DNA of 55,988 nt from a virus (Duplodnaviria; Caudoviricetes), in the IMG/VR virus record IMGVR_UViG_3300042323_000878, positions 1-55,988 of that record; one strand, written 5' to 3'. A program made the position numbers and the translations under genes. Numbering within the stretch: position 1 is the stretch's first letter; each line of letters opens with the position of its first letter. Below are positions 7,769-44,946 of this stretch, piece after piece. The notes beneath the pieces are model-generated. The model was not told the origin of the DNA and searched no databases. It saw only the letters and a program-made list of their open reading frames with translations.

Positions 7769-7797
7769 ATTATAACTTGACTTTGCAGAAACGCAAA
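7769..7797 (-). promoter_or_regulatory. Sigma70-like promoter (copy 2 of 4)
   Basis: TTTGCgtttctgcaaagtcaagtTATAAT on the minus strand. Confidence 0.7.
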
Positions 7798-7807
7798 ATT
7801 ATGGGCT

Positions 7808-8773: not shown

Positions 8774-8785
8774 AGGGAGTGCTCC

Positions 8786-9178: not shown

Positions 9179-9232
9179 AACCACATGCTCCTTTCAGCAA
9201 TGCTCTGCTCACACAACGCGAGCAAACTTCTT

Positions 9233-9427: not shown

Positions 9428-9538
9428 TCAGCAAGGCGTCTTGGGGGTTTTGGACGGAGCCGGGACGGGCTTGCCGCCAGCGGCCATGCGCTTGCGCTGA
9501 GGGACGAGGGGTGAATTGGCGATTGGTACAGTTGCCAT
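9428..9538 (-). CDS. 36-aa basic peptide MATVPIANSPLVPQRKRMAAGGKPVPAPSKTPKTPC
   Basis: Not in the track. AGGAG SD upstream of ATG 9538; its stop abuts the next gene's GTG. Confidence 0.6.
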   Translation of the reverse strand: MATVPIANSPLVPQRKRMAAGGKPVPAPSKTPKTPC

Positions 9539-9585
9539 AAGATGCTCCTGAGTGGTTTGAAAATAAATGCAAAAGTGGTTCATGA

Positions 9586-12057: not shown

Positions 12058-12210
12058 TCAGCAAGGGGTGCGAGAGTTCTTGGCGACTGCGCCGCCCTTG
12101 GCGTAGGCGTCCATTTTCTTGGCAGGTGCTGCGGATTTGCGCTTCATCTCGGGAGGGGCTTTGGCAGATTTGCTGTCTTGCATGAGCTTTTCGAACTTTT
12201 TGATGGCCAT
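12058..12210 (-). CDS. 50-aa Lys-rich peptide MAIKKFEKLMQ...MDAYAKGGAVAKNSRTPC
   Basis: Not in the track. AGGAG SD and upstream promoter; its stop abuts the portal GTG. Confidence 0.65.
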   Translation of the reverse strand: MAIKKFEKLMQDSKSAKAPPEMKRKSAAPAKKMDAYAKGGAVAKNSRTPC

Positions 12211-12238
12211 GGTGCGTGCTCCTGAATAAAGTGAGGGA

Positions 12239-12267
12239 ATTATAACTGAAAACCCGATTTATGCAAA
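12239..12267 (-). promoter_or_regulatory. Sigma70-like promoter (copy 3 of 4)
   Basis: TTTGCataaatcgggttttcagtTATAAT on the minus strand. Confidence 0.7.
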
Positions 12268-14340
12268 TTCTTTGCGCAAATTGGCCACTATTGCGTCGAT
12301 TTCTGACTCGTCGTAGTCGTTGGCTTGGACCAAGCCACCTGCTGCGTAGCCTTCTGGCGGCGCGAATGGTTCTGGCGGCGTGAACCGCTCTCCCGGTAGA
12401 GACTCAAGATAGTTGTCTAGTTCTGACTTAGGCACAAAACGGCCACCGAGCGCTTCCATGCGCTTGGGGAACCGCTGCAAATCCACCAACCCCGCATTCC
12501 CCAAGTCCCCCACATCTGACCACTGGCCTGAGCGCACAAAATCCTGCACAAAGGGCAGGTATTCCTCTTTCGGTGCGAGGTTGGCTTTGCCCTTGATTTG
12601 GGCGATGCGGTCGCCAATTTGCCGATCGGACAAAGACTTCTGCACCAAGACCTCAAACTCCTCGCGAGAGCCGTCAAAATCAGCCAACTGATCTCGAACG
12701 GAGTCTGGCAAATCAGCTTCTGTTAATTTCCTGCCCGGCAGCACCTCCACCGTCACATGTGGCTGACCTTTTGCGTCGCGCAAGGAGTAGATGCGGGAGC
12801 GACCTTCCATGACGTCTGGGCAATAGCCGCCGACGCAATGGCCCATGGTTTCGCCTTCGTACTTGAGGGCGTCTTCGAGGGCGGCTTCGTCGAGTGTGTC
12901 GTGAAGATGCGTGACAGCGTCTTTTTCAGACTTCAGGCCGGTGGTGATGTATTTGCCGGTTTCTTTGTCCATGATGGCGAACGTCTCTGCACTGGGCGTC
13001 GGTCGCACAATGGAGTATCGCTGCGGCACCTGCCAAGCGTCCCAGCCCCCTTCCGGCTCATTGCGCACTTTCAACTCCACCCAGCGCAGCCCCTTGTCGT
13101 TGGGGGTGTTGAGCCCAGGAATGGTCGCGTACTCTTTGTGCACGACAGACGCTGCGTTGTTGGCGCGCATCATGTCCGCCTCAGCCTTCTGCGCCGCGCG
13201 CCACTCGTTGATCTTTGCAACTCGCTCGACCGCCTGCGGCACAGTGACCTTGGGCAAGGATTCGTACTTCAGCAACAGCTCAGGCGGCAATCCAGACGCA
13301 GGGTTGGTGGCGTTGCGGAGTTCGTCGATGAGGTGGTTGAAGCCGAGGCGATTGGCAGAACGTCCTTCGAGGTCATCAAAAATAGAATGAACGATCGTCT
13401 CTGGCGGCACCTTGGCCAGCCACGGATTGCGAGAAACGGTTGTTGTGCCGTCTTCGCCTGTTGTAGCCATAAACCTGCGTGCGACATCGTTGTTGACAAT
13501 AAAATCCGACATGTTTTCCCAACCGCGTGCTTGCTCTGATGACGCCAAACCTTGAGCCGGGAATCCTGCATCGACGCGGTCTATCGTCAAAACTCGACGG
13601 CCAGTGCGCGCCTCGTCTCCAAAATCTTGATGCAACATCCCTCTCTCAGCGAGCGCGCGCACAGGATCTTCGGGCGTCGCCATTTCGTTCTTGATGTACT
13701 TGGCGAGGGTTTTGTCGATCCAGTTGTTGAGGGCGCTGTCGACAGGAGGCAACGGGGGCGCTTGAATAAAGTCGCGAGCTTCTTGCGTCGTCAATCCCGG
13801 ACGCGCGTTCATCAGTTGGCGCACGGCTTCTGCCTCTGGATCTCGACGCAACCCCCGCAACGAATCTTCCAACGACCCGGCGAGCCAGTTACCGCCCTTG
13901 TTCTTTACGACGTTGGAGGACGGCGCACCTGCAGCACGGACAAACTCGCGCGCACCGTGAGCGATTGCACCGGGTGCTTGCACCAGCGCACGCAACGGCG
14001 AACCTGGCCCGAAGTAATTGCCGCCGACCAACTTGGCCCCTTCTGTGACGGCCTTGCCCGCAGGAGTGGTGCTCACCGAGCGCAACGGCAGCATCGCCTC
14101 CATCGAGTCGCTCGTGGGGAAGAAAGGTGCGTCGTATTGGAACCCTTTGTCGCGGAGCCAGTTGACCGCTGATCCTCCGAACGACTCGATGTCGCCCGGT
14201 GCGCCCAAAGCCCCTGCGAGCAACCCTCGGATTGTCGCGACAGGCAAGTCCTTGGCCGCCTCGCGGTCGTTGTTGCGCTCCGGGCGGCGACCAGCAGAGC
14301 GATAGCCGATGTAGGGTTTGTTTTCGTCAGCCACAATCAC
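12259..14340 (-). CDS. Large protein with a PcfJ-like domain; putative virion-packaged accessory protein
   Basis: L..EG..MGHCVGGY...G...IYSLRD..G.PHVTVEV and AQIKGKAN are PcfJ-like motifs. YAAGGLV near the C-terminus. Confidence 0.65.
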   Translation of the reverse strand: MIVADENKPYIGYRSAGRRPERNNDREAAKDLPVATIRGLLAGALGAPGDIESFGGSAVNWLRDKGFQYDAPFFPTSDSMEAMLPLRSVSTTPAGKAVTEGAKLVGGNYFGPGSPLRALVQAPGAIAHGAREFVRAAGAPSSNVVKNKGGNWLAGSLEDSLRGLRRDPEAEAVRQLMNARPGLTTQEARDFIQAPPLPPVDSALNNWIDKTLAKYIKNEMATPEDPVRALAERGMLHQDFGDEARTGRRVLTIDRVDAGFPAQGLASSEQARGWENMSDFIVNNDVARRFMATTGEDGTTTVSRNPWLAKVPPETIVHSIFDDLEGRSANRLGFNHLIDELRNATNPASGLPPELLLKYESLPKVTVPQAVERVAKINEWRAAQKAEADMMRANNAASVVHKEYATIPGLNTPNDKGLRWVELKVRNEPEGGWDAWQVPQRYSIVRPTPSAETFAIMDKETGKYITTGLKSEKDAVTHLHDTLDEAALEDALKYEGETMGHCVGGYCPDVMEGRSRIYSLRDAKGQPHVTVEVLPGRKLTEADLPDSVRDQLADFDGSREEFEVLVQKSLSDRQIGDRIAQIKGKANLAPKEEYLPFVQDFVRSGQWSDVGDLGNAGLVDLQRFPKRMEALGGRFVPKSELDNYLESLPGERFTPPEPFAPPEGYAAGGLVQANDYDESEIDAIVANLRKEFA

Positions 14341-15586
14341 ACTCCTTCGCTTGAGCGAGTCCGCCGTGTTTGAATCCGACTTTGAATGGCAACAGCTCTA
14401 GGCGGCGGAACTCTTGGTTGCCTTTCAGCGGCCCATATTCGATCGTCTGGTTGCGCATGTATTCTGGCAGCAACCCTTCGCGAGCTTGCAGGTCATAAAA
14501 CTCACCCATAGTCTTCAAGTCCATTGCTTTTGCCTTGTCGTATACGCTGTCCGTCGGACGCGGCACGTACTCGATGCCGAGTTTCTTGACTGCTTTTTCT
14601 GTCGACAAAGATGGCTCGTAATTCAAATCATAAATCCGTCGCACGTGCTCTGGCGTCACGTCTCCATGAATCTGCGCTTCAACGTAGTCCATCGGGTCTC
14701 TGAGGCCCAACTTGTTTTTCAAGGACACAATGTCTTCAAGCGAATACAACTCAGACCGCATCATCGGTGAACCTTCCAGCTCTGTGAGCACACGGGGCAC
14801 TTGCCTAGCGAACCGAGGCGTGCCGCTGCCGTCTTGCAAAGGCTTCAGCCCGTATCGCTCCATGAGCTGAGCGAACTTGCTCGGCAAGCCTTGTTCGTTC
14901 AGCACCTTGGACAAATCGTGCTCGTCTCGACCGTACAGCATGCCCGCCTTTTGCAACCCCAACTTTTCTATCGCGTCTTTGCGGGCTTGGCTGTAGTGCT
15001 TGGCCAATTCATAAAGCATCGACCCCTCAGCCACCGAGTCGTGATAAGGATTGCCCCCTCGCAACACCTCGTCTGCTGTGGCAAAGTTGCCTTTTGTCCT
15101 GTCGAGAGAATCATCGAACGTGATCGTTGTGCGCGCTCGGTGCTCAGGGTGCAACTCTAGTGCGTACTGGCCGTATTGCGGGATGGTGCTTTGGGGAGCG
15201 AGATAGCCTGAGCCTCGGTCAGGGTAGCGCGGGGAGAAGTAATTCTTGGTCGTGGCGAACGGATCCTCTGTCAAGTACCCGTAAGTTTGCCCCTTGTCTG
15301 CGAACATCTCTGGCTCAGCAGCGCTGCGAGCTTCGATCGAGCGTTTTGCACCAGAAGAAGCGCCTGTGCGCTTGGATTCGTGCACGCTCTTGAGTCGCCC
15401 CTCCTTCAGGTCTGTGAGCGATTTGCGACGAACGAGCACTTGTGCTTCGTTGATTGCGCGCAACTCTTCTGGGTTCAATGTGCGCGTGACCAACTCTCCC
15501 GTAGGCGAGCGCGTGGAGGCTTGCAACAGTGCGGCGAGCCTTTGTTCTGCGGCTTGGGCCTTGGCAATCAGATTAAGGATGCTCAT
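14327..15586 (-). CDS. DUF3626-like protein (possible ADP-ribosyltransferase fold)
   Basis: YGYL...QYG...LEL....R.RTTITFDDS and YVEAQIHG.V motifs. C-terminal FKHGGLA. Confidence 0.55.
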   Translation of the reverse strand: MSILNLIAKAQAAEQRLAALLQASTRSPTGELVTRTLNPEELRAINEAQVLVRRKSLTDLKEGRLKSVHESKRTGASSGAKRSIEARSAAEPEMFADKGQTYGYLTEDPFATTKNYFSPRYPDRGSGYLAPQSTIPQYGQYALELHPEHRARTTITFDDSLDRTKGNFATADEVLRGGNPYHDSVAEGSMLYELAKHYSQARKDAIEKLGLQKAGMLYGRDEHDLSKVLNEQGLPSKFAQLMERYGLKPLQDGSGTPRFARQVPRVLTELEGSPMMRSELYSLEDIVSLKNKLGLRDPMDYVEAQIHGDVTPEHVRRIYDLNYEPSLSTEKAVKKLGIEYVPRPTDSVYDKAKAMDLKTMGEFYDLQAREGLLPEYMRNQTIEYGPLKGNQEFRRLELLPFKVGFKHGGLAQAKECDCG

Positions 15587-17163
15587 GCTGCATACGGGTT
15601 GGCATATTGATGCTTGGGCTTGCGGCGATGTTCGACAACATCCTCAGCCACTTGCAGCTCAAACCAGTGCTCGTTCTTGAGGTAGATGATGGCCTGGCTG
15701 AACGTGTCGACGTAGTCATCATGCTCAGCAACAGGGAACTTGGCGAGTTGCTTCAAGAACGGTTGCGCCCAGCTCACGAACTGTCCAGGGTTTTTTGTCG
15801 ACTCTGGTATCCATAGCACATCCATTTCCAAGGTAGGTGCGGCTTGGTGGGCACGAGCAACTTTGTCCGCGTTTCCTGGATTGTAACCTATGACCGGAAC
15901 CCGTGCCAACCTTAAGTCTTGGATCAGTGACTGACCACTCGCTTTGGCTTCCACAAGGATACGATCAGGCCTTCTTGGCTTAGTGGGTTGGCCTTTGTGT
16001 GCACCCTTAGACCCGCCATACTCTGCCGTCCAGTCATCTACCGCCTTCTTGCGCAAATCAGGGTAACCGAGATGATCATCCCAAGCGTCCAGCAACATCG
16101 CATTGCGCACCCCTTTGCGAGTAAACATACCCCAAACAGTACACGCGGTTGGATCGCCTGATGACTTCTCAGTGAACGCACAATCGTAAGACTGCAACAC
16201 GAACTCCAGTTGTGGCATTGGGTCTGCCGCTGGCCAGCGTTGGAAATGTTTTACACGCAGCAAAGTGGCTTCAGTTGGCACAGGATTTTGTTGCAACTGG
16301 CCTGCAGAGCCGTACTCACCAAGCAACTGCTTAAGGTCAGTCAACTCTTTGGGTCCAAAGCGCTCAGGGCAGATGAGTTCGTCTTTAACTTTGCGTGGAT
16401 CGTATGGGCCAAGCGAGGTCTTGCGATGCTCACCGTCCCACTCAGCAGGGATGCAGATGTGTTCCCAACCGCCAAGGTCTTCAAGGATGTGACCAGAGAC
16501 GTCCTTTTCATGCAGTCGCTGCATGACCACAACCATTGCGTCGGCCTTCGGGTTGTTGAGTCGTGTGCTCCAAACCACATCAAACCATTCTAGAGTTGAT
16601 GTGCGTAAAGCATCAGACTGGGCTTCCTGAGCTGAGTGTGGGTCGTCAAGCAGCAGCCTTGACCCACCTTCGCCTGTTGCTGTACCACCCACAGAAGTTG
16701 CCATTCGGTATCCGGTCTTGTCATTCTCAAACCTGCTTTTTTGGTTTTGATCGCCGGACAGAGCAAACATTGAACCCCAACGCTCTTGGTACCAAGGGGA
16801 TTGGATCAGCCGCCGTGTCTTCAGGTTGTCACGGATTGATAGGTTGCCGGCGTACGACGAGCAAAGATACTTCTGTTGAGGGTCTGTAAGCCACTCCCAT
16901 GCAGGGAACATAACGGAAACGATCGTGGACTTGGAGTGGCGAGGAGGAATGTTGATCAACAAGCGGCGCAGTTCGCCGCTCGCTATGGCTTCAAGGTGCT
17001 CACAAATGACTTCGATATGCCAGGACGGAATAAACGGGATTCCAGGCTCAACAACGTGCCAACTCTGCTTTACAAACTCATAGAGGTTTGACTCAGCTCT
17101 GCGTTTATCACGCTCAAAGCGGATAAGCTCGAGCATGGCGGCAGGGCTAAGACTGCCTCCCAT
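15583..17163 (-). CDS. terL: Terminase large subunit
   Basis: INIPPRHSKS Walker A, LLLDDPH Walker B, QSYDCAF, VEAKASG and HDDYVD nuclease motifs. Confidence 0.95.
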   Translation of the reverse strand: MGGSLSPAAMLELIRFERDKRRAESNLYEFVKQSWHVVEPGIPFIPSWHIEVICEHLEAIASGELRRLLINIPPRHSKSTIVSVMFPAWEWLTDPQQKYLCSSYAGNLSIRDNLKTRRLIQSPWYQERWGSMFALSGDQNQKSRFENDKTGYRMATSVGGTATGEGGSRLLLDDPHSAQEAQSDALRTSTLEWFDVVWSTRLNNPKADAMVVVMQRLHEKDVSGHILEDLGGWEHICIPAEWDGEHRKTSLGPYDPRKVKDELICPERFGPKELTDLKQLLGEYGSAGQLQQNPVPTEATLLRVKHFQRWPAADPMPQLEFVLQSYDCAFTEKSSGDPTACTVWGMFTRKGVRNAMLLDAWDDHLGYPDLRKKAVDDWTAEYGGSKGAHKGQPTKPRRPDRILVEAKASGQSLIQDLRLARVPVIGYNPGNADKVARAHQAAPTLEMDVLWIPESTKNPGQFVSWAQPFLKQLAKFPVAEHDDYVDTFSQAIIYLKNEHWFELQVAEDVVEHRRKPKHQYANPYAA

Positions 17164-18371: not shown

Positions 18372-20756
18372 TTAGCTCAAAAGGTCATTTGCACCGGGTT
18401 TTTCAAGCACGGACCTTACAAGCTCGTTAATCTCCGATCGACTTTTTTCTTTGAACTCTCTGAATGTCGAACCTTTTACCCAAATTGTGCAAGCTTTTCC
18501 TTCCCATTTCACAGGGTGTTCAAGGACCGAAAAGCCTAATTTCATGAGCATTTTATGTAATGCTTTGCCCTTAGGCACCTCAATATCTTCGACAAAACTG
18601 AGTGCTGTTGTGAAGTGTCTGCTAGACAAAATTTGGCTGTTGAAGCCATACCCACCCTCTTCAATGAGGTCTTTAACAACCCCAAAAGCATCGCTGACGT
18701 TTAGGCTGATCATCTGATTTTTAGCCAATGAGGTCGGTGCTTGGCCTTTTGGATTGAACAACGGGCTTAATTGGTATTCAATAAGCCACTTCCTAAGGCC
18801 AGGGCCATGATCTTTAATCGAGTCAAACAAGATGCTAAAGTAATCAGAATCAGCAACTGCTAGCAGCTCTTCTTGTGTATTAAATGGTGTAAATTGAACC
18901 CACCAGCGCCTATCAGTATCTTCTAAAGGCAGTGCATCGTGGTGGTTAGTAAAGGCAATGTAGTTGACTGTATTAGGGGCAACGTACTCATTTACACCCT
19001 TTGGGTGGATGGTAATTTGGTCATTTGTAATGTACGGTTTGATGGTATTCAGCACATCATGGCGGTTATGACCAACCATCCGGATCTCTTCCAAAACATT
19101 GACACAACGGCCAGCCGCCCAACTTGTAAAGCCAGTACCAAGCACCGAGGGTGACACAATGCCCACGTTTGGCATGCCCATGACCCCCATCATCAAGTTG
19201 ACAAGCACTGATTTACCATCACCCTCAATGCCTTTAATTAGAGGTGCCCAGCGGATCTTTTCACCTGGATTCTGGACACAATAAGCAATCCAACTAAGCA
19301 TGATCTCGACTGAATAAGTTTCAACCAAGATCATTGCAAGGTGGGCTTTAACCACCTCAATCGCCTTAAGATCGCCAGGGCTAAACGTTACAGGTATGTC
19401 TGGTGGGCTGTTTCTGTTGTATTCATTGGCGCACGGTGCGCCGTTAAGATCAAACAAATCATCAGCCATGGGTAGATAGATGATTTTATCTGGCGTTGGT
19501 ATACGAAACAAGTCAAGAGCCAAAGTTGCAGCCGAGTCGTCACCACAATGCCTGTTAAACATAGCTGCAAAGCCTTGCTGGCTAACTTTGCGTTTAGTCG
19601 TAACATTAAAAAACTTGTCTTCATGGGTCACATAAACCCAATCAGCCAACCATTCAGGCACGCCTTCATGCACCTTCGGTTTAATCAAACCTTTAGCATC
19701 GCCGATAGAAATTGGAAAGCCTAGATCCTTAAACTTGGTTTTAAGGATGCCAGCAAGGACCCCTCTGCTTAAATGATCCAACCCTAACTCTGCTTTGATC
19801 CCATCGACAACTGTGGTCCTTAAGCTCTCCAAATCGGTTTCACTCTCAATGGTAGTCTTGCATCTGTCAAACGTGCGTTGTTGCTCGGCTTTCTTGTGCT
19901 CACCTGCGCGCATAATGATCGAGGCAAGCGTTACGGCGCCTTGACCACCGTCCCGCTGCTCACTAAATGAATCCCACTTAGCTTCTAGTTCCCGCCGGTC
20001 ATAAGAACCTGTTTGTCGGCTTACTTTGTCCCAAAGCTCCATCCATTCTTCATCTCCACGGCCCTGATGATGCAAAGCCATGCCGAGTTGAAGCCAAAGA
20101 TCATAGGGTTCAATGTCGCCAACGTAGGGCAGCAACTCATTTTCAACACGGTCGAGGTCCCAGTCAGAAAGAGGGGGCTTATATGCCTCAAGAGAAAACG
20201 ATTCATTAGAGCTAAAATGCTCTTCAACAAACCAACTAACATCTTGAATGGAGGATGGTAAAGCTTCATGTCCATTAAGCTGATGGCCAGTGACTGTAAA
20301 GTAACGACCATCTCTATAAACTTCGATGTTGCCTTTTTTGCCGTTGATTGCAAGGTTGGACTTGGTGAATAGTTTAATGCCTGTGCCTGATGGACTTGTC
20401 TCGGCGTATCCATCAACTCGGTCTAACAAGTCTTTAGCCAACGGACTCATGACCCCATTAACGATGCACTTATCCAAATCGATGCCTTGAATGCCGTCAC
20501 TGCCATCAAAGGCTATACCGATGCCCTCATAACCTTCCATGAGGTAGGTGTCTAGAGCATCTTCAAAACTTGACCAATGCTTTGGATTAGTTACCTGGGC
20601 CAAACGACCATTAACCTGGTGTGGTACTTTCTTCCAAACTATCTCACCACTCTTTTTGACTGATTGCTCAAGTTTCCATACAACCCAGCGATGGATTGCT
20701 TTAAGCTCTTGAGGGATTGATTCTGGTTTGACAGCTAATGGTGTTGGTCGGCTCAT
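18372..20756 (-). CDS. Primase-helicase (prim-pol / PriCT-2 / DUF5906 P-loop ATPase)
   Basis: GIDLD.C, YAETSPSGTG and EVY..GRYFTVTG primase motifs; WLQLGMALH PriCT-2; GIEGDGKS Walker A; FTNH and DRRW. Confidence 0.9.
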   Translation of the reverse strand: MSRPTPLAVKPESIPQELKAIHRWVVWKLEQSVKKSGEIVWKKVPHQVNGRLAQVTNPKHWSSFEDALDTYLMEGYEGIGIAFDGSDGIQGIDLDKCIVNGVMSPLAKDLLDRVDGYAETSPSGTGIKLFTKSNLAINGKKGNIEVYRDGRYFTVTGHQLNGHEALPSSIQDVSWFVEEHFSSNESFSLEAYKPPLSDWDLDRVENELLPYVGDIEPYDLWLQLGMALHHQGRGDEEWMELWDKVSRQTGSYDRRELEAKWDSFSEQRDGGQGAVTLASIIMRAGEHKKAEQQRTFDRCKTTIESETDLESLRTTVVDGIKAELGLDHLSRGVLAGILKTKFKDLGFPISIGDAKGLIKPKVHEGVPEWLADWVYVTHEDKFFNVTTKRKVSQQGFAAMFNRHCGDDSAATLALDLFRIPTPDKIIYLPMADDLFDLNGAPCANEYNRNSPPDIPVTFSPGDLKAIEVVKAHLAMILVETYSVEIMLSWIAYCVQNPGEKIRWAPLIKGIEGDGKSVLVNLMMGVMGMPNVGIVSPSVLGTGFTSWAAGRCVNVLEEIRMVGHNRHDVLNTIKPYITNDQITIHPKGVNEYVAPNTVNYIAFTNHHDALPLEDTDRRWWVQFTPFNTQEELLAVADSDYFSILFDSIKDHGPGLRKWLIEYQLSPLFNPKGQAPTSLAKNQMISLNVSDAFGVVKDLIEEGGYGFNSQILSSRHFTTALSFVEDIEVPKGKALHKMLMKLGFSVLEHPVKWEGKACTIWVKGSTFREFKEKSRSEINELVRSVLEKPGANDLLS

Positions 20757-20968
20757 TGCGCAGACCTTTCACGTTCAATCATCATGTCTACCAGGGTTAG
20801 TATATTCGTGGCATTAACGTCACGAAGCTTAAGGCCGATGAGGACTGACCTGGCGGTATAGATCAATGAATGGAGTTCCTCAACAGACTTGACCATTCCT
20901 GGACCAAAGTCAGTTAAAGGCTTAGTCTCAAGCGCAGAAAAGTACGGGCCTTGATCATCATCTTCCAT
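20753..20968 (-). CDS. Hypothetical protein
   Basis: AAGGA SD before ATG 20968 (MEDDDQG...). ATGA overlap with the primase gene. Confidence 0.55.
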   Translation of the reverse strand: MEDDDQGPYFSALETKPLTDFGPGMVKSVEELHSLIYTARSVLIGLKLRDVNATNILTLVDMMIERERSAQ

Positions 20969-26161: not shown

Positions 26162-26259
26162 CCTGCCATTTACCAACACGGGTTGGCGTGTCAATCAGGT
26201 GCAAAGCCTGTCCTAATTAGTTGTACAATCAACTACCAATCAATACGAAGGAGTTGTTT

Positions 26260-27123
26260 ATGGAAAGCAGGATCATGGGCCTTGTCAAAGCCATGCACGA
26301 AAAGTTTGGTTTAGCTAATGCTGTAGGCCCGATTAGTTTACAAAAAGAAGAAAAAGAATTCCGCATTGCCGCGATGCAAGAAGAACTTAACGAGTACGCT
26401 GAAGCGGAAACATCAGTCGACCAATATGACGCTCTTTTGGATCTTATCGTCTTCGCTGTAGGCACACTCGAGCGTCATGGCTTTCCATTGCTTGAAGGTT
26501 TTGAAGAAGTTATAAAGTGTAACATGGCCAAGGAGTTAGGCCAGAATGGTAAAAAGCGTGGTGGCTTTAAGCGTGATTTAGTCAAGCCTGCAGGTTGGAC
26601 CGGCCCTGAAGAAAAGCTTATGGACATACTCGTCAAAGCCAGTGTTGCAGCCGCCCCAAAGCCGCGTATGAGTCCTTTTTGCGTTGCACAATCGCCAAAA
26701 GAAATAGCCCCTTCCGTTGCACAATCGCCAAAAGAAATAGCCCCTTCCGTTGCACAATCGCCAAAAGAAATAGCCCCTTCTTCTGATGGAACAATTCAAC
26801 CGGGCTTTGCTCCGAAGTTTGATGCTACAAAGGTGCGTGTCGACCTACTCCCTGTCGGCCCCATGTTGCAGATTGCCGAAGTATTTACATTTGGCGCAAA
26901 AAAGTATTTTGCCGATTCGTATCGGCAAGGAGAAACCGTTGCGTGGTCGCGTACTTATGGGTCGATTATGCGCCACATGATGTCTTTTTGGAATGGCGAG
27001 GACAAGGACCCTGAGAGTCATTTATCTCATTTGGCGCATGCAGGTACTCAATTGTGTATTTTGATGGAGCACTCAACCTACAACAAAGACAAAGATGACC
27101 GTTTTGTAAGGGGCCAATCGTGA
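26260..27123 (+). CDS. MazG/PRA-PH-like NTP pyrophosphohydrolase fused to a DUF5664 (dATP/dGTP diphosphohydrolase N-terminal) domain
   Basis: EEL.EY...DAL.DL..F..G...EV..CNMAK...DLVKP.GW..P (MazG-like), then K.D..K...DLLP...V..FGA.KY...RH...W.GED.DPES.L.HLAHA. AAGGAG SD before ATG 26260. Confidence 0.85.
   Translation: MESRIMGLVKAMHEKFGLANAVGPISLQKEEKEFRIAAMQEELNEYAEAETSVDQYDALLDLIVFAVGTLERHGFPLLEGFEEVIKCNMAKELGQNGKKRGGFKRDLVKPAGWTGPEEKLMDILVKASVAAAPKPRMSPFCVAQSPKEIAPSVAQSPKEIAPSVAQSPKEIAPSSDGTIQPGFAPKFDATKVRVDLLPVGPMLQIAEVFTFGAKKYFADSYRQGETVAWSRTYGSIMRHMMSFWNGEDKDPESHLSHLAHAGTQLCILMEHSTYNKDKDDRFVRGQS
26682..26780 (+). repeat. 3 x 33-bp perfect tandem repeat encoding a VAQSPKEIAPS linker
   Basis: cgttgcacaatcgccaaaagaaatagccccttc at 26682, 26715 and 26748. 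Confidence 0.95.
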
Positions 27124-27767
27124 ACGTAACAAGCATCAGGCAGATATTTGTTAATAAGCTTGCCAATGAAGACTTTGCCGATGATGGCAATCTGGAGATT
27201 GTCAACGCCTCGTTTATCGCCGATGCGTCTTTGATCTTTGGCACTGTAAACGATGAATGGAACGGCAGAGAGCTCGAGTGGTACCTGAGCCAGTCTCTCA
27301 ACGTGAATAGCATTAGGCCTCCGGTGCCTGTTGTTTGGAAAAATGTTGCTACAAAAGACGGGCGCATAAACAGCAACTATGGTTGGTGTATTTTTAGCCG
27401 AGAAAATGGGTATCAGTTCCATAAAGCAATTGACGCGTTGGTTGCTAATAAAGCAAGTCGCCAAGCAGTCATGGTTTACATCCGGCCGTCGATGCATGAA
27501 GACTCTAAAGCCGACGGGATGCGTGACTTCATGTGCACCTACTCAACCCAGTTACTTATTCGTGGTGACCAATTGCACATGATTGTTAACATGCGGTCAA
27601 ATGACGCAATCTACGGATTTAAAGGAGACAGGTTTTGGCAAAGTACAGTCCTTGACTATAGTTTGATCAGATTGAAACAAACGTACCCAGAACTTGTCAG
27701 AGGCAACCTTTACTGGAATGCTGGCAGCTTGCACATCTACCCTCGTCACTTTGGTTTAGTTGAATGA
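27120..27767 (+). CDS. dCMP hydroxymethylase (T4 gp42-like, thymidylate synthase fold)
   Basis: Motifs recalled from T4 gp42: ASF.AD...IFG..N, RELEWY.S.SL, INSNYGW.I, RPSM..D...DGM.DFMCT (catalytic Cys), VNMRSND...GF..D (Asp at the dCMP-specificity site), WN.GSLH.Y.RHF.LV. Confidence 0.9.
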   Translation: MNVTSIRQIFVNKLANEDFADDGNLEIVNASFIADASLIFGTVNDEWNGRELEWYLSQSLNVNSIRPPVPVVWKNVATKDGRINSNYGWCIFSRENGYQFHKAIDALVANKASRQAVMVYIRPSMHEDSKADGMRDFMCTYSTQLLIRGDQLHMIVNMRSNDAIYGFKGDRFWQSTVLDYSLIRLKQTYPELVRGNLYWNAGSLHIYPRHFGLVE

Positions 27768-28723
27768 TTTACAACCCATTCACCAATATACCTAAGCAGC
27801 CTAGGTCCCATGTGCGTGGCTGGGCGCTGCATTGGGCCGAATGCCTAGGCACTACAGTTGCCGGACTTGACAGCCGGCTCGATGACCACTCTACTATCTA
27901 CATTGAACATGGAGTCAACTTTGGTGGAGTGCTTAACTTGTTTGGCGGAGTAACGGGGCAATTGGTTGATCGGTTAGATGAGTTGGTTAACTATAAAGGT
28001 AACTTAGTCAGCCTAGACTGGCCAATGCCAAACTATGCACATCAACTAAGTCTACGAATAGGCCAAGCAACATGTTCACCTAGACTGACACAAACTCTTT
28101 TGGATGCATTAGAAGAAAGATTAACGCGGTCAATCACACTGACCCAACGCGATTTGTCAGTTGACCACGTAACTATTGGTGACAGTCACTCAACTGCTTT
28201 TGCACCTGTACAATCTAGCGTCTTACGTACAAACGGGCTTACTTTACACGGGGCACTTCAAAAAGGCCACTTTATTGGGCAAATGGGCCGCTTGGTTCAT
28301 CAACCAAAGCGCGTAACTTTGGCCTGTGGATCAATAGACATCCGACACCATATAGGCCGTCAGGCAGACCCTAAGCAGGCACTTTTAGGGTTATGTGGCA
28401 ACTATTCAGACCTAGCTGACTTTTTGGCAGATGAGTATGGCGTTGAGGTTGAAATAGCGACCCCGGTGCCAGTGGAATGGGAAGGTAGAAAGATACCACA
28501 AACAGGGTTTTATAAGAAGGAGCCATTTAGCGGCACACAAGCCCAAAGGCGCGAATGGACTCAAATGTTCATTGACAAAATGTGTGAGCACGGGCTAATT
28601 AGCCCGCCTCAAGGCTGGTATTCAATGGATGGCAAAGAGTACGCAGACACCTACATGGAGCCTAACTCTTCGGTGCACATTGCACCGCCTTTTTATCGTA
28701 GAAATGATTGGGGACAACTATGA
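27764..28723 (+). CDS. SGNH/GDSL-fold hydrolase or acyltransferase-like protein in the modification operon
   Basis: IGDSHS (block I-like), GSIDIRHH (block III-like) and C-terminal SSVH (block V-like His). ATGA-coupled on both sides. Confidence 0.6.
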   Translation: MIYNPFTNIPKQPRSHVRGWALHWAECLGTTVAGLDSRLDDHSTIYIEHGVNFGGVLNLFGGVTGQLVDRLDELVNYKGNLVSLDWPMPNYAHQLSLRIGQATCSPRLTQTLLDALEERLTRSITLTQRDLSVDHVTIGDSHSTAFAPVQSSVLRTNGLTLHGALQKGHFIGQMGRLVHQPKRVTLACGSIDIRHHIGRQADPKQALLGLCGNYSDLADFLADEYGVEVEIATPVPVEWEGRKIPQTGFYKKEPFSGTQAQRREWTQMFIDKMCEHGLISPPQGWYSMDGKEYADTYMEPNSSVHIAPPFYRRNDWGQL

Positions 28724-29634
28724 GTCTATTTACCATCACGACTGACAAGTCAAATAAAGACATTCCTGATGGCATGGACATCGTACAGGCTAAGCAACAC
28801 TATGTCGCTATGCGCAAAGGTTTTGTCTCTAAGCTAAGTCCTGCGGTAGTTAAAAGATATGAGGGCAAGTGGGTATTTCGTGGCGATGTAAGTGCGAGTA
28901 GTTTGAAAGGTTATGGGGCTGAGCAGTTAATAGCTGAATGCAAAGAAGAAGTGCTTGTTTATTGCGCGCCTAGGGTAGGGATGGCTATGGACGCAATTGC
29001 TACATTGGCCAAGCTTTACGGTAAGCGTTGTGTTTTCTTTTGCCCAGCTTCTAGCGAAGCATCAATGCACCAAAAAGCGTTGCTTGCCTATGGTGCCGAC
29101 TTACGCTTCATCAAGATTGCAGCCATGCCAACACTTAATAGTTATGCAAAAAAGTGGGCCGATAAACATGGTGCAAAGTATCTTCCATTTGGCCTGGCCA
29201 AAACACCCTCAGTCACAGCAGGCATCATCAACTTGGCCGATCAAATGAAAATTGTGCCGAGTGAGATATGGATGTCAGTCTCTACCGGGACCGCAATCCG
29301 GGCCCTACAGATTGCCTGGCCAGGAGCAGCGTGTAAAGGGGTTGTTGTGGCTCGCAACATGCATGATGGTGAAATAGGTCAAGCCATGTTGTGGTCATCA
29401 TCACAGCCATTCTTAAAAGACGTTCCCGTGGCTCATAGGCCTCCCTTTCCATCGACATCAAATTACGATGCAAAATGCTGGCAAGATTTTGATGCATTTG
29501 CTGCCCCGGATGCAATCTTCATCAATGTAGGAACAGACGATAAGGTGTTGGAGATGTATAAGCAGGTAGCCAACGTGCCGCTAAAAAGCCAGCGCGAATG
29601 GCATGACCTACGTGATTTGGAGCGTGGGCTATGA
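28720..29634 (+). CDS. PLP-dependent enzyme, fold type II (tryptophan synthase beta / ACC deaminase-like)
   Basis: V.R.D.....LK (putative Schiff-base Lys), YGA.L, LPFG, SVSTGT phosphate loop, YDAK and FINVG. Confidence 0.8.
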   Translation: MSLFTITTDKSNKDIPDGMDIVQAKQHYVAMRKGFVSKLSPAVVKRYEGKWVFRGDVSASSLKGYGAEQLIAECKEEVLVYCAPRVGMAMDAIATLAKLYGKRCVFFCPASSEASMHQKALLAYGADLRFIKIAAMPTLNSYAKKWADKHGAKYLPFGLAKTPSVTAGIINLADQMKIVPSEIWMSVSTGTAIRALQIAWPGAACKGVVVARNMHDGEIGQAMLWSSSQPFLKDVPVAHRPPFPSTSNYDAKCWQDFDAFAAPDAIFINVGTDDKVLEMYKQVANVPLKSQREWHDLRDLERGL

Positions 29635-30767
29635 GAATAGAAACCACGGCCTATTATGATGAAATGGTTCGTTATGCAGCCATGGCAAAAACTCAACAAG
29701 CAGAGTGTAACTTAGGCACAATCCCGCACATGGAAGGATCAGTCAAGGATGATCTAATGCGCCATGTTGAGCTTTATGACGTGGTCAATCGCAAATACGC
29801 CGGCTTTACACAAATTGTACTTGACCTTTGGTACAACACATCGCCTGACCATCCTTACGCCCATAAGCTGCACTCTGTCAGAAAACCGATATGTAATTCG
29901 TTTCAAGGAGTTGAGAATGAGTGGTGTTTAGCTGAATGGCTTTATGTCTTTATCGTACATCGAGTCACAGGCAGCGGCATCAACTACGCCAAAAAACCGA
30001 GTGGCTATAACAACACTATTTTGCCTAAGTTTGCATCTTGTGGCAGCATCGATCAAATGGTTCAAGTCATTAAGGGTCGTGGTCCAGAATCGATTTACAC
30101 TTCTGTTGGTTATCAATTTCCGGCATTCCCTAAGAAGGTAGACGGGTACAGACTCGGCGGTGATTACTTCCTTTGTGCCTATGCACCTCAACTTGCCCGT
30201 GAAATGTCAGAATGGTTAAACTGTGGCACAAAGCATGACTTGCGCGACGTTGGCGAGTGGATGTTTGAATGGAATAAAAAGCAAGGGCTTAGGGCTTACA
30301 AATTCCAGTACGCGGCAGTCGTTAGTGATATAGCCGACTTTTTTCCCCGATATGTCAACCCGCATAGCCTGTTTTTCTATGGCACTAACGCAGTCGAGTG
30401 TTTGAAGTACGCAGCTAAGCCCTTAAGTAAAGGTAGTGAGCAAGAATTTCTAGACGAGGTATCTATGCGTTTTAGTAACGACATCGGGTCTACAGCCTAC
30501 GACGGGGAAGATATTTTTTGCGATGGAATTCGCTGGATAGAAAACTATGTACGCCCTGGCCATGACTATCAACATGTCGACAGAGATAGAGTTTGGAATA
30601 GTAGCAATATCGTAGACCACCCTTATGGCCGCCAGAAGGCAATGCTGCATCATGGCTTGATCGACTCGTTTAACAAGTTGACTGTCCACCCATCAGATGA
30701 CTACGTACTTAAGCAGGCAGGGATGAGCAAAGACCAATATACACTTAAAGTGCATGGCTTGGACTGA
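29631..30767 (+). CDS. aGPT-Pplase / amino acid:DNA transferase-like protein (HhH glycosylase-related)
   Basis: Ordered motifs D.L....LYDVVNR, F....VVSD.A, YG.NA..CL and D.ED..CD..R follow the aGPT-Pplase clade 1 pattern. Operon context supports the call. Confidence 0.6.
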   Translation: MRIETTAYYDEMVRYAAMAKTQQAECNLGTIPHMEGSVKDDLMRHVELYDVVNRKYAGFTQIVLDLWYNTSPDHPYAHKLHSVRKPICNSFQGVENEWCLAEWLYVFIVHRVTGSGINYAKKPSGYNNTILPKFASCGSIDQMVQVIKGRGPESIYTSVGYQFPAFPKKVDGYRLGGDYFLCAYAPQLAREMSEWLNCGTKHDLRDVGEWMFEWNKKQGLRAYKFQYAAVVSDIADFFPRYVNPHSLFFYGTNAVECLKYAAKPLSKGSEQEFLDEVSMRFSNDIGSTAYDGEDIFCDGIRWIENYVRPGHDYQHVDRDRVWNSSNIVDHPYGRQKAMLHHGLIDSFNKLTVHPSDDYVLKQAGMSKDQYTLKVHGLD

Positions 30768-30960
30768 CAAAAGAGGACGCTTAGTTTGCGGTTGTGGTGG
30801 TTATCACTTTCCACACAGAAAAAGAAGTCTTCGATGCTGGTATCATCCAAATGCTGAATACTTAGCAATGAGACGTCAAGGTATGGACCACATGGAAGCG
30901 ATGATTGAGTTGATATGGCATAGTGACAAAAAGCCATCAAACGATCCTTGCCCCTTCTAA
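30754..30960 (+). CDS. Small Cys/His-rich (probably Zn-binding) protein
   Basis: CGCGGYHFPHR..S..C..HP; overlaps the upstream gene. Confidence 0.6.
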   Translation: MAWTDKRGRLVCGCGGYHFPHRKRSLRCWYHPNAEYLAMRRQGMDHMEAMIELIWHSDKKPSNDPCPF

Positions 30961-30981: not shown

Positions 30982-31410
30982 ATGACTAGACCGACCCTCG
31001 ACCAGACCTATATGGAAGTTGCACGAGCATTTGCCAAACGTGCAACTTGTAGCAGAAGGCAGGTAGGTGCCGTCATTACCGGAAAAGGCTACATACTGAG
31101 CTCCGGCTATAACGGATCTTATCCTGGTTCTGTTCATTGTATAGACTCACCATGCGCAGGCTCAGGTCTGCCTAGTGGTACAGGTCTTGATAGCTGTATG
31201 AGCGCCCACGCAGAACAAAATGCTATTGCCAGGTTAAAAGACTTTGATGGTGCAGATACGTTGTACGCTACGACTTCTCCCTGCATTTCGTGTACAAAAT
31301 TGATTCTTTGTACGAATATTCGTCGCATCGTTGCTGATCAAAATTACCCGCAAAGCGGAAAGGAATTGTGGCTAAGTGCCGGCCGAGTGTGGGTCAACTA
31401 TGCGGACTAA
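30982..31410 (+). CDS. dCMP deaminase
   Basis: RATC.RRQVGAVI, GYNG, HAEQNAI and PCISC Zn motifs. Confidence 0.95.
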   Translation: MTRPTLDQTYMEVARAFAKRATCSRRQVGAVITGKGYILSSGYNGSYPGSVHCIDSPCAGSGLPSGTGLDSCMSAHAEQNAIARLKDFDGADTLYATTSPCISCTKLILCTNIRRIVADQNYPQSGKELWLSAGRVWVNYAD

Positions 31411-41734: not shown

Positions 41735-43708
41735 TCACTTCAAGGTCTTGAGGTAATCCTCTATGCCCATAGAGCCAGAGTCGACCGGTGCGCTCGCAGC
41801 GTCGTCAATGCTTTCTTGAGGGGCTTCGGTTCCTTGCGGGGACGGCCAGACCGCAGACGCGGCCCCAGTCGTCAGTCCTCGTTCTGTCGCCCCTGCCGCA
41901 AACGCTTTTGGTCCAGCGCCAGCAGCTTGCTCTTCAAGCAACTTGACGACCGCAGCGACGTCTTTCGGGCTTTTAGACATCAGCATCTCAGAGAGCTTGT
42001 CTGCTGTTTGTTCGCTCATAGAAGCGTTGCGCGTTGCGCGGCTCGCCAAGTTGGTGAGCGAATTCCAAAAGCCTCCCGATATCGCATCTGCCACAGCGCT
42101 GCCGATGCCTTGCCCTTCTTCGAACTGCTTTTGCATCTCAATCCGTTGGCCAGTTTGCGAGCCGCCTAGGATGCGGTTAGATTGATTGAACAATTGCGAC
42201 TCGCGCTCCAGCGCTGACTTGAACAAGTTGAATTGCGCAGGGTTGTCGAACAAAGGTTGCAACTTGGCTTGCATCTCGGGAGAGCCGATGATCCGTTGAG
42301 CCGCGTTCATGTTGCCCGATGGGCCCATGATTTTGCCGTACAAGTCTCGAGACACCCCTGTGCGGAAAGCTTCTTTTTCTGCAGGGCCCATGCCTTTAAC
42401 TAAGTTGACGACCTGCTCATGGTCCAGCTTGTTGAAGTCGTTCATCCCTTTGCGCAAAGCATCAATCACCTCCATGTCGCCTGCGTAAGCTTGTCGTGCA
42501 AATTGGTAAGCCGGGACATTCTCGTCGATGGCGTTCACAAAAACCTTGCGCAAGTCGCGCAAAGCGCTGGCCTCTGCCGTGCTCATGCCTTTGCCTTTGT
42601 AAGCGTCGTCGATGGTCGCGTCGATGCCGCGCTTGATGTAATCCAGTGTGCGCACGTCTGGTGTCTGGACAGATTCCACGATTGTGTTGCCTGCCCGGTC
42701 TTTGCCTAGCTTGTAGATCTCAGGCAGCATATATTTTGCCGGGTCTTGCCCACTGAGCTTTGCCGCCATGGCTTCTTTGTTGGCGATTGCTTTTGCTTTT
42801 TCGAAGAACCCCGCAAACTCAGGGTCTTGAAGCACTTGCATGATCCGAGGGTCGTCGACTGCGCCGTGCGCGTATGCGTCGTCGTAGACGGTTTTTGCTC
42901 CTGCGCGCAGCTCAGAAACCAGTCGTTGCTCGTCGTCGTAGAAGTTGCCGGGCTTGAGCGCGGCGGCGACTTGCTGGTGAGTGCGTTCCTTGGCTCCGAG
43001 CTTTTGGTCTGTCAGCGCTTTTTCTATCCGCAAAGAACCGGCCCCAGACCTTTGTGCGACGGTTTCTGCGAGCTTGGCTGTGCCGGGGGAGGTGTTGGCA
43101 ACAACCGAAGGCACGCGCATCGAGGTGTCTTGCCGCATCATCTTTTCAATTTGCTGAGGGGTTGCGCCGGTTTGCGCGAGGGCGGTGTTGAGCTTGCCGG
43201 CAGCGCGGTTGGCGATGAATCCCTCTGTCGGAGCCAACCGCTCCCGCAACCACGTCGCTCCTGCACTAGCGCCTCGCACCACGGGAGCCGCTGCTGCGCC
43301 CATAGCACCACCCAAGGCAGCGCCCGAAGCCGCTCCAGTGCCCCGTTGGCCTTCGGTCGCTGTGCCTGCACCGGAGACGCCGCCAGCCAGTGCGCCCAAC
43401 CCGCCCAACTTCGCTGCAGCAATTGCTGACGTCCTGCTGAGTTGATTCACACCGAGCGCTTGTCCGCCCGGCACCATCATCATCGCAATTCCCGGAGCCG
43501 CGCCGCCCACGAATTCAGAAGCTCCGGAGGTGAATGGGTAGTTCTTGGCGTAATCTCCATACTCAGAGCGGATCTTGGCGACATTTTCTTCGTATGTGCC
43601 TTGTCCGAGCTTGGACCGCAACCAAGCTTCCGCCTCGTCGCCCCAACCCATGCCGAGTCCTTGCCCAAGAACGGCACGAGCTGTGTTTTTGCCAAAGTCT
43701 GCCATCAC
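41735..43708 (-). CDS. Putative DNA ejection / internal virion protein
   Basis: 657 aa, Ala/Gly-rich N-terminus (QGL..GWGDE) and LDY.KRGID...GSQT motifs seen in podovirus injection proteins. Confidence 0.65.
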   Translation of the reverse strand: MMADFGKNTARAVLGQGLGMGWGDEAEAWLRSKLGQGTYEENVAKIRSEYGDYAKNYPFTSGASEFVGGAAPGIAMMMVPGGQALGVNQLSRTSAIAAAKLGGLGALAGGVSGAGTATEGQRGTGAASGAALGGAMGAAAAPVVRGASAGATWLRERLAPTEGFIANRAAGKLNTALAQTGATPQQIEKMMRQDTSMRVPSVVANTSPGTAKLAETVAQRSGAGSLRIEKALTDQKLGAKERTHQQVAAALKPGNFYDDEQRLVSELRAGAKTVYDDAYAHGAVDDPRIMQVLQDPEFAGFFEKAKAIANKEAMAAKLSGQDPAKYMLPEIYKLGKDRAGNTIVESVQTPDVRTLDYIKRGIDATIDDAYKGKGMSTAEASALRDLRKVFVNAIDENVPAYQFARQAYAGDMEVIDALRKGMNDFNKLDHEQVVNLVKGMGPAEKEAFRTGVSRDLYGKIMGPSGNMNAAQRIIGSPEMQAKLQPLFDNPAQFNLFKSALERESQLFNQSNRILGGSQTGQRIEMQKQFEEGQGIGSAVADAISGGFWNSLTNLASRATRNASMSEQTADKLSEMLMSKSPKDVAAVVKLLEEQAAGAGPKAFAAGATERGLTTGAASAVWPSPQGTEAPQESIDDAASAPVDSGSMGIEDYLKTLK

Positions 43709-44934: not shown

Positions 44935-44946
44935 GGTGGATCCTTT

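Follow-up and report, generated by a model that had tools for sequence, protein, structure and literature searches.

The viral record IMGVR_UViG_3300042323_000878, analyzed here over its full length of 55,988 bp (the window; completeness, 100% by CheckV), carries on its plus strand a gene for an SGNH-like two-domain protein of 319 amino acids (aa) at positions 27764..28723, delimited by its open reading frame (ORF), an AlphaFold2 (AF2) model, and a match to phrog_13881 (E = 1.5e-64). The surrounding genes are ordered as follows: a MazG-like protein, a thymidylate synthase (TS)-fold protein, the SGNH-like protein, a pyridoxal phosphate (PLP) enzyme, a 378-aa protein (P378), a 68-aa ORF, a dCMP deaminase, and a DNA polymerase, with an overlapping chain up to the 68-aa ORF. 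The ATG of the SGNH-like ORF overlaps the stop codon of the TS-fold gene (27120..27767, plus strand), and its own stop codon shares bases with an in-frame ATG (position 28720) of the PLP gene (28720..29634, plus strand), for which the ORF list gives a TTG start at 28708. The PLP enzyme is of fold type II (PALP) and falls in phrog_7093 (E = 2.5e-45). P378, an all-helical protein (29631..30767, plus strand; AF2 pLDDT, 89.1), follows directly. An earlier note on this DNA had placed the SGNH-like gene between a hydroxymethylase and a PLP enzyme, and both neighbors were identified as such (i.e., a dCMP hydroxymethylase upstream and a PALP-type member of phrog_7093 downstream).

The upstream protein matches the T4 deoxycytidylate hydroxymethylase (PDB 1B49/1B5E; E = 4.2e-57) and is annotated as a dCMP hydroxymethylase of the T4 gp42 type, with 5-hydroxymethyl-dCMP as its predicted product. 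Its FKGD motif is aligned to FRND of the T4 enzyme, in which the Asp is residue 179. Among the TS homologs encoded beside members of the SGNH-like family, the specificity column holds Asp in 56 of 56 proteins, and the catalytic Cys column is likewise conserved (56/56). Since the hydroxymethylase is of the gp42 type and has Asp at the specificity column, the modified base is, judging from these sequences, 5-hydroxymethylcytosine (5-hmC), the substrate base that the earlier note had assumed. A 5-hydroxymethyluracil (5-hmU) base is ruled out by the specificity-column Asp in all 56 homologs.

The SGNH-like protein belongs to a large family. A word-based search retrieved 305 proteins at E ≤ 1e-3 among 2733 candidates, and an exhaustive search retrieved 371 representatives (clusters at 50% identity; E ≤ 1e-3), with 303 at E ≤ 1e-10. 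The window protein matches two PHROGs of unknown function (phrog_17781 in addition to phrog_13881) and has no Pfam family, its sole Pfam row being a chance-level match to EcoEI_R_C. Searches of PDB chains with the single sequence and with a profile likewise returned chance-level rows only. In an alignment of 194 family members, on which all conservation counts given here are based, G139, S141, H142, D192, R194, R242, and R262 are invariant (194/194). D140, H196, and H305 are each conserved in 193 members, N58 is conserved in 192, and H16 and E299 are conserved in 191 each; R98 is likewise near-invariant. The motifs named in the earlier note (i.e., GDSH, G.ID.RHH, and SVH) lie at aa 139 to 142 (28178-28189), aa 189 to 196 (28328-28351; GSIDIRHH), and aa 303 to 305 (28670-28678), respectively, and are invariant or nearly so across the family. 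This conservation is far beyond chance. The N-terminal region contains the segment HGVNFGGVLNLFGG (aa 49 to 62), which ends in an NLFGG loop (aa 58 to 62; 27935-27949).

The earlier note had left about 130 residues at the N terminus unassigned; this no longer holds. When the 194-sequence family alignment was compared by hhalign with an alignment of the T4 beta-glucosyltransferase (BGT) family, 91 columns were aligned (aa 2 to 98 versus BGT residues 5 to 115; probability, 89.5%; E = 2e-6), and the N-terminal part alone gave a probability of 94.5% and an E value of 7.6e-8. Controls with a reversed BGT alignment and with three unrelated families gave E values of 0.05 to 0.6. A smaller alignment of 37 sequences gave weaker values (E = 0.056 versus T4 BGT and E = 0.0015 versus a 24-sequence BGT family alignment). 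In the smaller alignments, N58, G61/G62, and D85 of the phage family stand opposite the BGT invariants N70, G73, G74, T99, and D100. The Pfam model of the BGT N-terminal domain (PF09198) matched nothing in the genome at a threshold of E ≤ 10, while T4 itself scored 1e-99. On the basis of the profile comparisons, we conclude that the N-terminal ~100 residues (BGT-like acceptor domain, aa 2 to 98; 27767..28057) share ancestry with the T4 BGT acceptor domain, which spans about residues 1 to 165 of that enzyme. The N-terminal domain of BGT binds DNA and holds the flipped-out 5-hmC of double-stranded DNA, and its Asp100, located after the fourth strand, acts as the general base; the candidate counterpart in the window protein is Asp85 (28016-28018). 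The homology strengthens the case for the 5-hmC hydroxyl as the acceptor. The gene positions also correspond, the T4 b-gt gene lying directly downstream of gene 42 and the SGNH-like gene directly downstream of its own gp42 homolog.

The likeness to BGT ends with this domain. Compared with the BGT family, which has its UDP-glucose-binding domain in this part, the C-terminal half gave an hhalign E value of 0.048 over 6 columns only, which rules out the whole protein as a GT-B enzyme. The earlier note had held that a predicted glycosyltransferase fold would speak against its SGNH assignment; such a likeness is present in the N-terminal acceptor half and absent from the C-terminal half, which is SGNH-like. 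The protein could still be a noncanonical glycosyltransferase or other group transferase, in which the SGNH-like half serves as a Rossmann-like nucleotide-donor domain and the Ser-His motifs form no acyl-enzyme site. The homology of the N-terminal domain and the position of the b-gt gene would fit such an enzyme, as would an Arg pair after the third strand, which recalls the arginines by which the BGT donor domain binds phosphate (R191 and R269, invariant in the BGT family alignment), and the sugar-gene neighbors that family members have in Aeromonas phages. We nevertheless regard this as very improbable, given that the C-terminal half is unlike the BGT donor domain, that no glycosyltransferase occurs in the top 50 Foldseek rows against either PDB or BFVD, and that a glycosylated base is no obvious substrate for a PLP enzyme of the decarboxylase type.

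The C-terminal half (aa ~130 to 319; 28151..28720) was assigned by Foldseek, the ESM Atlas, hhalign, and conservation. The AF2 model of the protein was built from 37 sequences (pLDDT, 91.9; pTM, 0.88). Its probability-1.00 Foldseek rows against PDB are almost all GDSL/SGNH esterases (e.g., 3mil, 7toh, 4iyj, 2hsj, 4hyq, Axe2, TesA, and PatB; E = 1.4e-4 to 1e-2). Against BFVD, the first four rows are members of the family itself (Aeromonas phage 31 ORF233c, two uncharacterized proteins, and Tenacibaculum phage PTm1 A0A5S9BYZ5), followed by phage SGNH proteins. In the ESM Atlas, residues 130 to 319 resemble an SGNH esterase cluster (feature score, 0.94; TM-score, 0.74/0.63). The order of the motifs relative to the strands of the model fits SGNH blocks I, II, III, and V. 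The block I GDSH, which contains Ser141, directly follows the strand at residues 135 to 139, as G-D-S follows the first strand in SGNH proteins, and hhalign against Escherichia coli TesA aligned the block I GDS motif only (13 columns; E = 0.023). His305 of the SVH motif is the predicted partner of Ser141, and Ser-His dyads occur within the SGNH superfamily. The C-terminal half thus has an SGNH-like fold, with a likely Ser-His pair. These structure searches bear out, for this half, the SGNH-type fold that the earlier note had read from the motifs, and they exclude a kinase fold. The ESM Atlas also contains viral clusters of 189- to 205-aa proteins that resemble the C-terminal domain alone (feature score, 0.96) and a 972-aa giant-virus cluster that combines glycosyltransferase domains (PF04488 and PF01501) with a domain like the C-terminal half (TM-score by query, 0.78).

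We compared the gene neighborhoods of the best 80 of 233 IMG/VR relatives (41 to 73% identity; 71 distinct proteins). A homolog of P378 is encoded in 73 of the 80 loci, and all seven misses lie at contig ends, where no more than 1092 nt remain downstream of the SGNH-like ORF. P378 is thus an obligate partner of the SGNH-like protein. The PLP enzyme occurs in 75 loci, in every one of which its start lies directly downstream and less than 250 nt from the end of the SGNH-like gene; two of the five misses are at contig ends, and the other three (L030, L031, and L050) are real and keep the pair of SGNH-like and P378 genes, which fits a tailoring step for the PLP enzyme. The hydroxymethylase was found in 66 loci. 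Nine of its 14 misses have less than 700 nt of upstream sequence, and the other five are genome fragments; when these five records were searched whole, one had a TS fragment at the contig end, and the remaining four were fragments of 8 to 46% completeness. The MazG-like homolog is present in 57 loci. In addition, several family members are fusion proteins. Five carry P378 at their C terminus (P0185, P0209, P0223, P0194, and P0265) and one a partial form of it (P0257), while the Pfam helical domain HMUDK_hel (PF18723) is joined to the SGNH-like protein clearly in P0190 (E = 4.5e-11; also with an FkbM methyltransferase domain) and weakly in P0182 (E = 0.0036, below the cutoff).

Around the P378 gene, the related loci vary in several ways. 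A 334-aa protein is encoded between the P378 and SGNH-like genes in eight loci (including L062:8988-9992, L038:9034-10023, L060, L074, L077, and L079); it is a distant P378 paralog (hhalign probability, 84%; E = 7e-6) without a Pfam family. In L003, L005, L007 to L011, L016, L025, and L026, the gene in the P378 slot (e.g., L003:11877-12995) is only 29 to 32% identical, while its flanks are 57 to 83% identical; in other, equally close relatives of the window phage, the P378-slot gene is 78 to 86% identical. From these sequences, the helical partner looks like a cassette that is exchanged, perhaps altering the group attached to the base. Just upstream of the SGNH-like gene, 11 loci (L038:8583-9047 and 10 others) encode a 154-aa protein with a weak match to the uracil-DNA-glycosylase superfamily (PF03167; E = 1.6e-4, below the cutoff).

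The PLP enzyme matches Pfam PALP weakly (E = 0.0017, below the cutoff). Phage M6 gp52 falls in the same PHROG (phrog_7093; E = 2.2e-159), its direct BLASTP similarity to the window enzyme being low (E = 0.002), and gp52 has been shown experimentally to decarboxylate a thymine-attached amino acid in DNA (Lee et al. 2021, PMC8989533). We infer from the shared PHROG that the PLP enzyme may be a decarboxylase of a DNA-linked amino acid. A PLP-enzyme-like domain also occurs in gp1 of Erythrobacter phage vB_EliS_R6L (L083; 872 codons from stop to stop; "DNA modification methylase"; residues 462 to 691; hidden Markov model E = 4e-47), and similar matches are present in Erythrobacter phage ZS04 and Microcystis phage Mae-JY30.

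Post-replicative hypermodification by way of an activated hydroxymethyl group has been established on thymidine alone, and in every case with a P-loop 5-hydroxymethyldeoxyuridine (5-hmdU) DNA kinase (PMC8989533). In the window genome, the Pfam models of the 5-hmdU DNA kinase (PF18748), its helical domain (PF18723), and the amino acid:DNA transferase (ADDT; PF18724) found no match at E ≤ 10 or at E ≤ 1. When every frame of 100 aa or more was scanned for Walker A, the motif turned up in just two places, the primase-helicase ORF (18375-20768) and a virion-module ORF (46696-48498). The SGNH-like ORF itself has no Walker A motif, no kinase Pfam family, and no kinase fold, which rules it out as a P-loop kinase. 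The search was extended to 38 of the 80 loci (i.e., those on longer contigs; five records were at least 90% complete), and PF18723 was absent from all 38 (positive control, phage PaMx11, 1.2e-42). The earlier note's statement that no P-loop kinase is visible in the operon therefore holds, and by these searches none was found in the complete genome. The gene also appears to occupy the kinase's expected place, as that note had suggested, in that it travels with P378 and is fused to P378 or HMUDK_hel in several proteins. In the thymidine-modifying phage PaMx11, the HMUDK_hel protein gp50 adjoins the P-loop kinase gp49, and SP10 gp186 is listed as a kinase-aGPT-Pplase fusion (PMC5889632, Table 3).

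Given the BGT-type acceptor half, the SGNH half, the constancy of the gene as first member of a module whose other genes look like the later stages of thymidine hypermodification, and the lack of a kinase, we propose that the protein derivatizes the hydroxyl of 5-hmC, likely by acylation. We assign a probability of roughly 40% to the full reading, in which a two-half, post-replicative transferase acylates 5-hmC to create a leaving group, which is then displaced by an amino acid that is decarboxylated; we infer, within it, DNA as the substrate, the 5-hmC hydroxyl as the acceptor, an acyl group as the moiety transferred, and its role as a leaving group. The BGT-derived N-terminal half would hold the 5-hmC hydroxyl, and the SGNH-like half, in place of the UDP-glucose domain, would load itself with a donor group, most likely acyl and derived from a thioester or ester, via an acyl-Ser141 intermediate. 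This group would be passed to the 5-CH2OH of 5-hmC, yielding 5-acyloxymethylcytosine in DNA. The ester would then play the role that 5-phosphomethyl-uracil has in thymidine hypermodification: P378 would displace it with an amino acid joined through its side chain, and the M6-gp52-type PLP enzyme would decarboxylate the attached amino acid to give an aminoalkyl-substituted 5-methylcytosine.

Several points weigh against this proposal, whose chemistry, donor, and product are hypothetical. On the side of the fold, the TM-scores of the Foldseek PDB rows are modest (0.3 to 0.4 by query and ~0.5 by target). The Pfam GDSL models PF00657 and PF13472 miss the SGNH-like protein (no Pfam match at E ≤ 1), and PF13472 has no match genome-wide at E ≤ 10. 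The oxyanion-hole Asn of block III is not in place, the segment reading G189, S (116 members) or N (76 members), I191, and D192, with Ile before the Asp in 181 of the 194 members. The Asp of the block V D-x-x-H motif is also absent; the motif reads S-x-x-H, and the residue three before His305 is S, G, Q, or R with no conserved Asp. Since both the block III Asn and the block V Asp are missing, the protein is not a canonical SGNH member. On the side of the acceptor domain, Asp85 is aligned with BGT Asp100 in the two smaller alignments and is two residues off in the 194-sequence one, and its column varies within the family (D in 142, E in 16, N in 8, and G in 7 of 194 members; D or E in 158/194). 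As regards the kinase, PF18748 found nothing in the 38 records, but it is insensitive and lacks a positive control (PaMx11 gp49 scored only 18 bits), so that it is chiefly PF18723 and the search for Walker A motifs that speak for the absence of a kinase. Moreover, a small P-loop kinase (AAA_18/APS_kinase-like) is encoded ~6 kb downstream in 7 of the 80 loci, all of the large-myovirus type. One of these kinases (L068:15974-16411) matches AAA_18, APS_kinase, AAA_33, and Zeta_toxin, and the last two models also match PaMx11 gp49.

The invariant Arg/His cluster would be as compatible with phosphoryl transfer, or with a phosphorylated donor, as with acyl transfer; together with the missing oxyanion Asn, it makes phosphoryl transfer a serious rival. 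In that case, the protein would act as a kinase without a P-loop, moving phosphate from ATP, polyphosphate, acetyl phosphate, or a similar donor to 5-hmC; the product, 5-phosphomethylcytosine, would be the cytosine analogue of 5-phosphomethyldeoxyuridine and would be displaced by P378. The invariant R194, R242, R262, and H142 and the near-invariant H196, H305, H16, and R98 resemble a phosphate-binding site, and the fusion to HMUDK_hel, which is otherwise a kinase companion, points the same way. To our knowledge, no SGNH-fold kinase has been described, and no nucleotide-binding motif was recognized in the protein. The block I GDS with the next His and the C-terminal His forms an acyl-enzyme signature, and the Arg residues could bind the DNA backbone or coenzyme A instead. 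Known amino acid:DNA transferases, on the other hand, work with a metal and with phosphate as the leaving group (PMC8989533; PMC13458397). On balance, we consider a phosphoryl-transferring enzyme unlikely, serious as it is among the alternatives to 5-hmC acylation.

A further point against the proposal concerns the helical partner. P378 was compared with HMUDK_hel and ADDT by hhalign, giving E values of 0.02 to 0.5 with shallow templates (4 to 5 sequences), so that a distant homology is possible; searches for relatives of single PaMx11 proteins gave only 1 and 4 close relatives, too few for deeper templates. Nothing was found for P378 by phmmer or profile search against PDB, by Pfam (34/34 aligned members without a match), among PHROG families, or by tblastn among 50,697 phage records. 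Membership of P378 in the aGPT-Pplase/ADDT group was consequently not upheld, and its transferase role is an analogy. Its Foldseek PDB rows are only weak matches to helix-hairpin-helix 8-oxoguanine glycosylases (TM-score, 0.25/0.40; E of ~3 to 7), with no row at E ≤ 0.001 and no 8Z2M-type match. A similar weak glycosylase likeness was reported for the crystal structure of the PaMx11 transferase gp46 (PMC11472151). P378 may be either a DNA-base transferase or a base-flipping partner. A complex prediction for the SGNH-like protein with P378 returned "no answer" (score, 0.00), which speaks neither for nor against binding.

If P378 were a DNA-binding or base-flipping subunit, the SGNH-like protein could itself install the final group, an acyl or aminoacyl ester on 5-hmC, with the PLP enzyme remodeling the amino acid. 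DltD, an SGNH-like D-alanyl transferase, is a precedent for this chemistry. An acceptor half of the BGT type speaks for a group handed straight to the hydroxyl, P378 has no detectable ADDT homology, fusions of the HMUDK_hel type look more like the addition of an accessory helical domain than of a second enzyme, and three loci hold only the SGNH-like and helical genes. The PLP enzyme, however, shares its PHROG with a decarboxylase that requires a free alpha-carboxylate and alpha-amine, and decarboxylation would be impossible for an amino acid esterified via its alpha-carboxyl. The co-occurrence of P378 and its 334-aa paralog in some loci is also reminiscent of thymidine pathways, with their two clades of aGPT-Pplase, and base esters would, on chemical grounds, be labile in virions. 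We therefore rate direct installation as improbable.

The carriers of the family among known phages bear on 5-hmC acylation as an activating step in both directions. By tblastn, the family was found in 40 phage records, namely, 38 of Aeromonas phages and two of Stenotrophomonas phage IME13 (25 to 33% identity); Aeromonas phages 44RR, 31, and 25 are cultured. In 44RR and 25, we found a gp42 homolog (46 to 49% identity) and no BGT. Petrov et al. 2010 (PMC2993671) describe genes 42 and 56 and no glucosyltransferase in 44RR, 31, and 25 and, for phages of this kind, leave other modifications of 5-hydroxymethyl-dCMP (Hm-dCMP) open. That the family is carried by phages with gene 42 and no glucosyltransferase gene favors the proposal. 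The family protein of 44RR and 31 has 795 aa and a weak HMUDK_hel match. In 44RR, the family gene follows a Na/solute symporter gene, in a context of sugar genes, and in phage 25 (L002), a UDP-galactopyranose mutase gene (4767-5831; Pfam GLF, E = 5e-54) lies upstream of the family gene. Directly upstream of the latter, a 358-aa protein (L002:5872-6948; phrog_14998) weakly resembles the donor domain of BGT (E = 0.0073) and is unrelated to the C-terminal half of the fusion protein in 44RR. The neighbors in phage 25 hint at galactofuranose chemistry on the DNA of this phage, and this sugar-gene context keeps a glycan-linked role alive for 44RR and 25.

Such a role would make the protein a late hydrolase or tailoring enzyme (i.e., an esterase that edits a base ester, or an O-acetyl transferase or esterase acting on a 5-hmC glycan) with no part in activation. 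Most SGNH proteins are esterases, and the Foldseek matches are esterases, acetyl-xylan esterases, and lipases; the phage 25 neighborhood and the giant-virus proteins that join a similar domain to glycosyltransferase domains are also in keeping with it. Nevertheless, sugar genes are missing from the operon in the window and in its relatives of 55 kb. The SGNH-like gene, which defines all 80 loci, is the most constant member of the module and is fused to the helical partner, the acceptor-domain homology points at the bare hydroxyl of 5-hmC, and a late role would leave the genome with no other detected activator of the hydroxyl. A tailoring function is accordingly quite improbable in our estimate. 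Direct ester installation, a late esterase, and glycosyl transfer are all graded as less likely explanations, and the acylation of 5-hmC as an activating step is the reading that we retain.

The MazG-like protein (26221..27123, plus strand) is a two-domain nucleotide pyrophosphohydrolase (PRA-PH, PF01503, E = 1.4e-5; dGTP_diPhyd_N, PF18909, E = 1.8e-26), and it may act as a dCTPase-type feeder for the hydroxymethylase, after the model of T4 gp56. The linker between its domains contains three copies of the 11-residue unit VAQSPKEIAPS. The 68-aa Cys/His-rich ORF at the end of the operon (30754..30960, plus strand) matches phrog_17384 (function unknown; E = 3.3e-6) and has a homolog in only 1 of the 80 loci. 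The dCMP deaminase gene (30982..31410, plus strand) is supported by Pfam PF00383 (E = 2.1e-19) and phrog_174. The G+C content is ~0.55 to 0.58 in positions 1-17000 and 42000-55988, which carry long minus-strand ORFs, versus 0.45 to 0.50 in positions 18000-41000, which hold the replication/modification module.

In the literature searched, the combination of a BGT acceptor half with an SGNH half was not found described. No account of an SGNH/GDSL-type phage modification of hmC or DNA was found in a search whose coverage was thin for subscription journals and did not extend to supplements. On hypermodified cytosine with PLP or aGPT-Pplase enzymes, only work on thymidine and work on T4 glucosyltransferases turned up, and "SGNH" is not mentioned in a 2026 5-hydroxycytosine paper, a 2023 glycosyltransferase preprint, or a 2026 diaminopropane-thymine paper. 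For 5-hmC, only glycosylation has been established to date. We think it possible, at somewhat less than even odds, that the family represents a new kind of DNA-base activator, assembled from the 5-hmC-flipping half of a glucosyltransferase and an SGNH half, that makes the hydroxyl a leaving group or ester by a route other than ATP-dependent P-loop chemistry, produces undescribed amino-acid or aminoalkyl cytosines together with P378 and the PLP decarboxylase, and is also the 5-hmC-modifying enzyme of 44RR, 31, and 25. If so, amino-acid-type chemistry would extend to cytosine, with the kinase replaced by an unrelated enzyme, and undescribed cytosine modifications would be spread across several hundred uncultured phage lineages, the family being large and unnamed (371 clusters and no Pfam model). 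The question raised in 2010 about Hm-dCMP modification also becomes testable, since 44RR, 31, and 25 are cultured and carry the family. A new 5-hmC-specific enzyme might, like BGT, be of use for labeling 5-hmC.

The system can be compared with four known ones. With T4 BGT (PF09198; GT-B fold), the phage protein shares the homologous N-terminal ~100 residues, including the N-x-F-G-G loop and, in most family members, an acidic residue that follows the next strand, the gene position directly after the dCMP hydroxymethylase gene, and the expected substrate, 5-hmC in DNA. It differs in escaping detection by PF09198 and in having an SGNH-like domain where BGT has its UDP-glucose-binding C-terminal domain, and its pathway continues with a PLP enzyme instead of sugars. 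With SGNH/GDSL hydrolases and acyltransferases (e.g., TesA, PatB, and acetyl-xylan esterases), it has in common the flavodoxin-like fold, the block I GDS, the block II Gly, and the C-terminal His of S-x-x-H, whereas the additional invariant R194, R242, and R262, the near-invariant H196, the lack of the block III Asn and block V Asp, and the linkage to a DNA-acceptor domain, with a DNA base as the predicted substrate, set it apart. The thymidine pathways of phages ViI and M6 (Lee et al. 2018, 2021) differ in their base, which in the window is predicted to be cytosine, and in their ADDT (PF18724), HMUDK_hel (PF18723), and kinase components, none of which is detectable in the window genome, where the helical partner is of a separate family. 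They correspond in combining a hydroxymethylase, a nucleotide pyrophosphatase, a dCMP deaminase, and a DNA polymerase within one replication module and in the PLP enzyme, which shares the PHROG of M6 gp52. Finally, the P-loop 5-hmdU DNA kinase acts in a 5-hmU context and has a P-loop and a kinase fold, while the SGNH-like protein has neither and is found in a 5-hmC context. Both nonetheless appear to fill the same pathway slot (i.e., hydroxymethylase, activator, helical DNA-base enzyme, and PLP decarboxylase), and both are found joined to helical partners, through HMUDK_hel in P0190 (weakly in the 44RR/31 protein) and through fusions that parallel that of the SP10 kinase.

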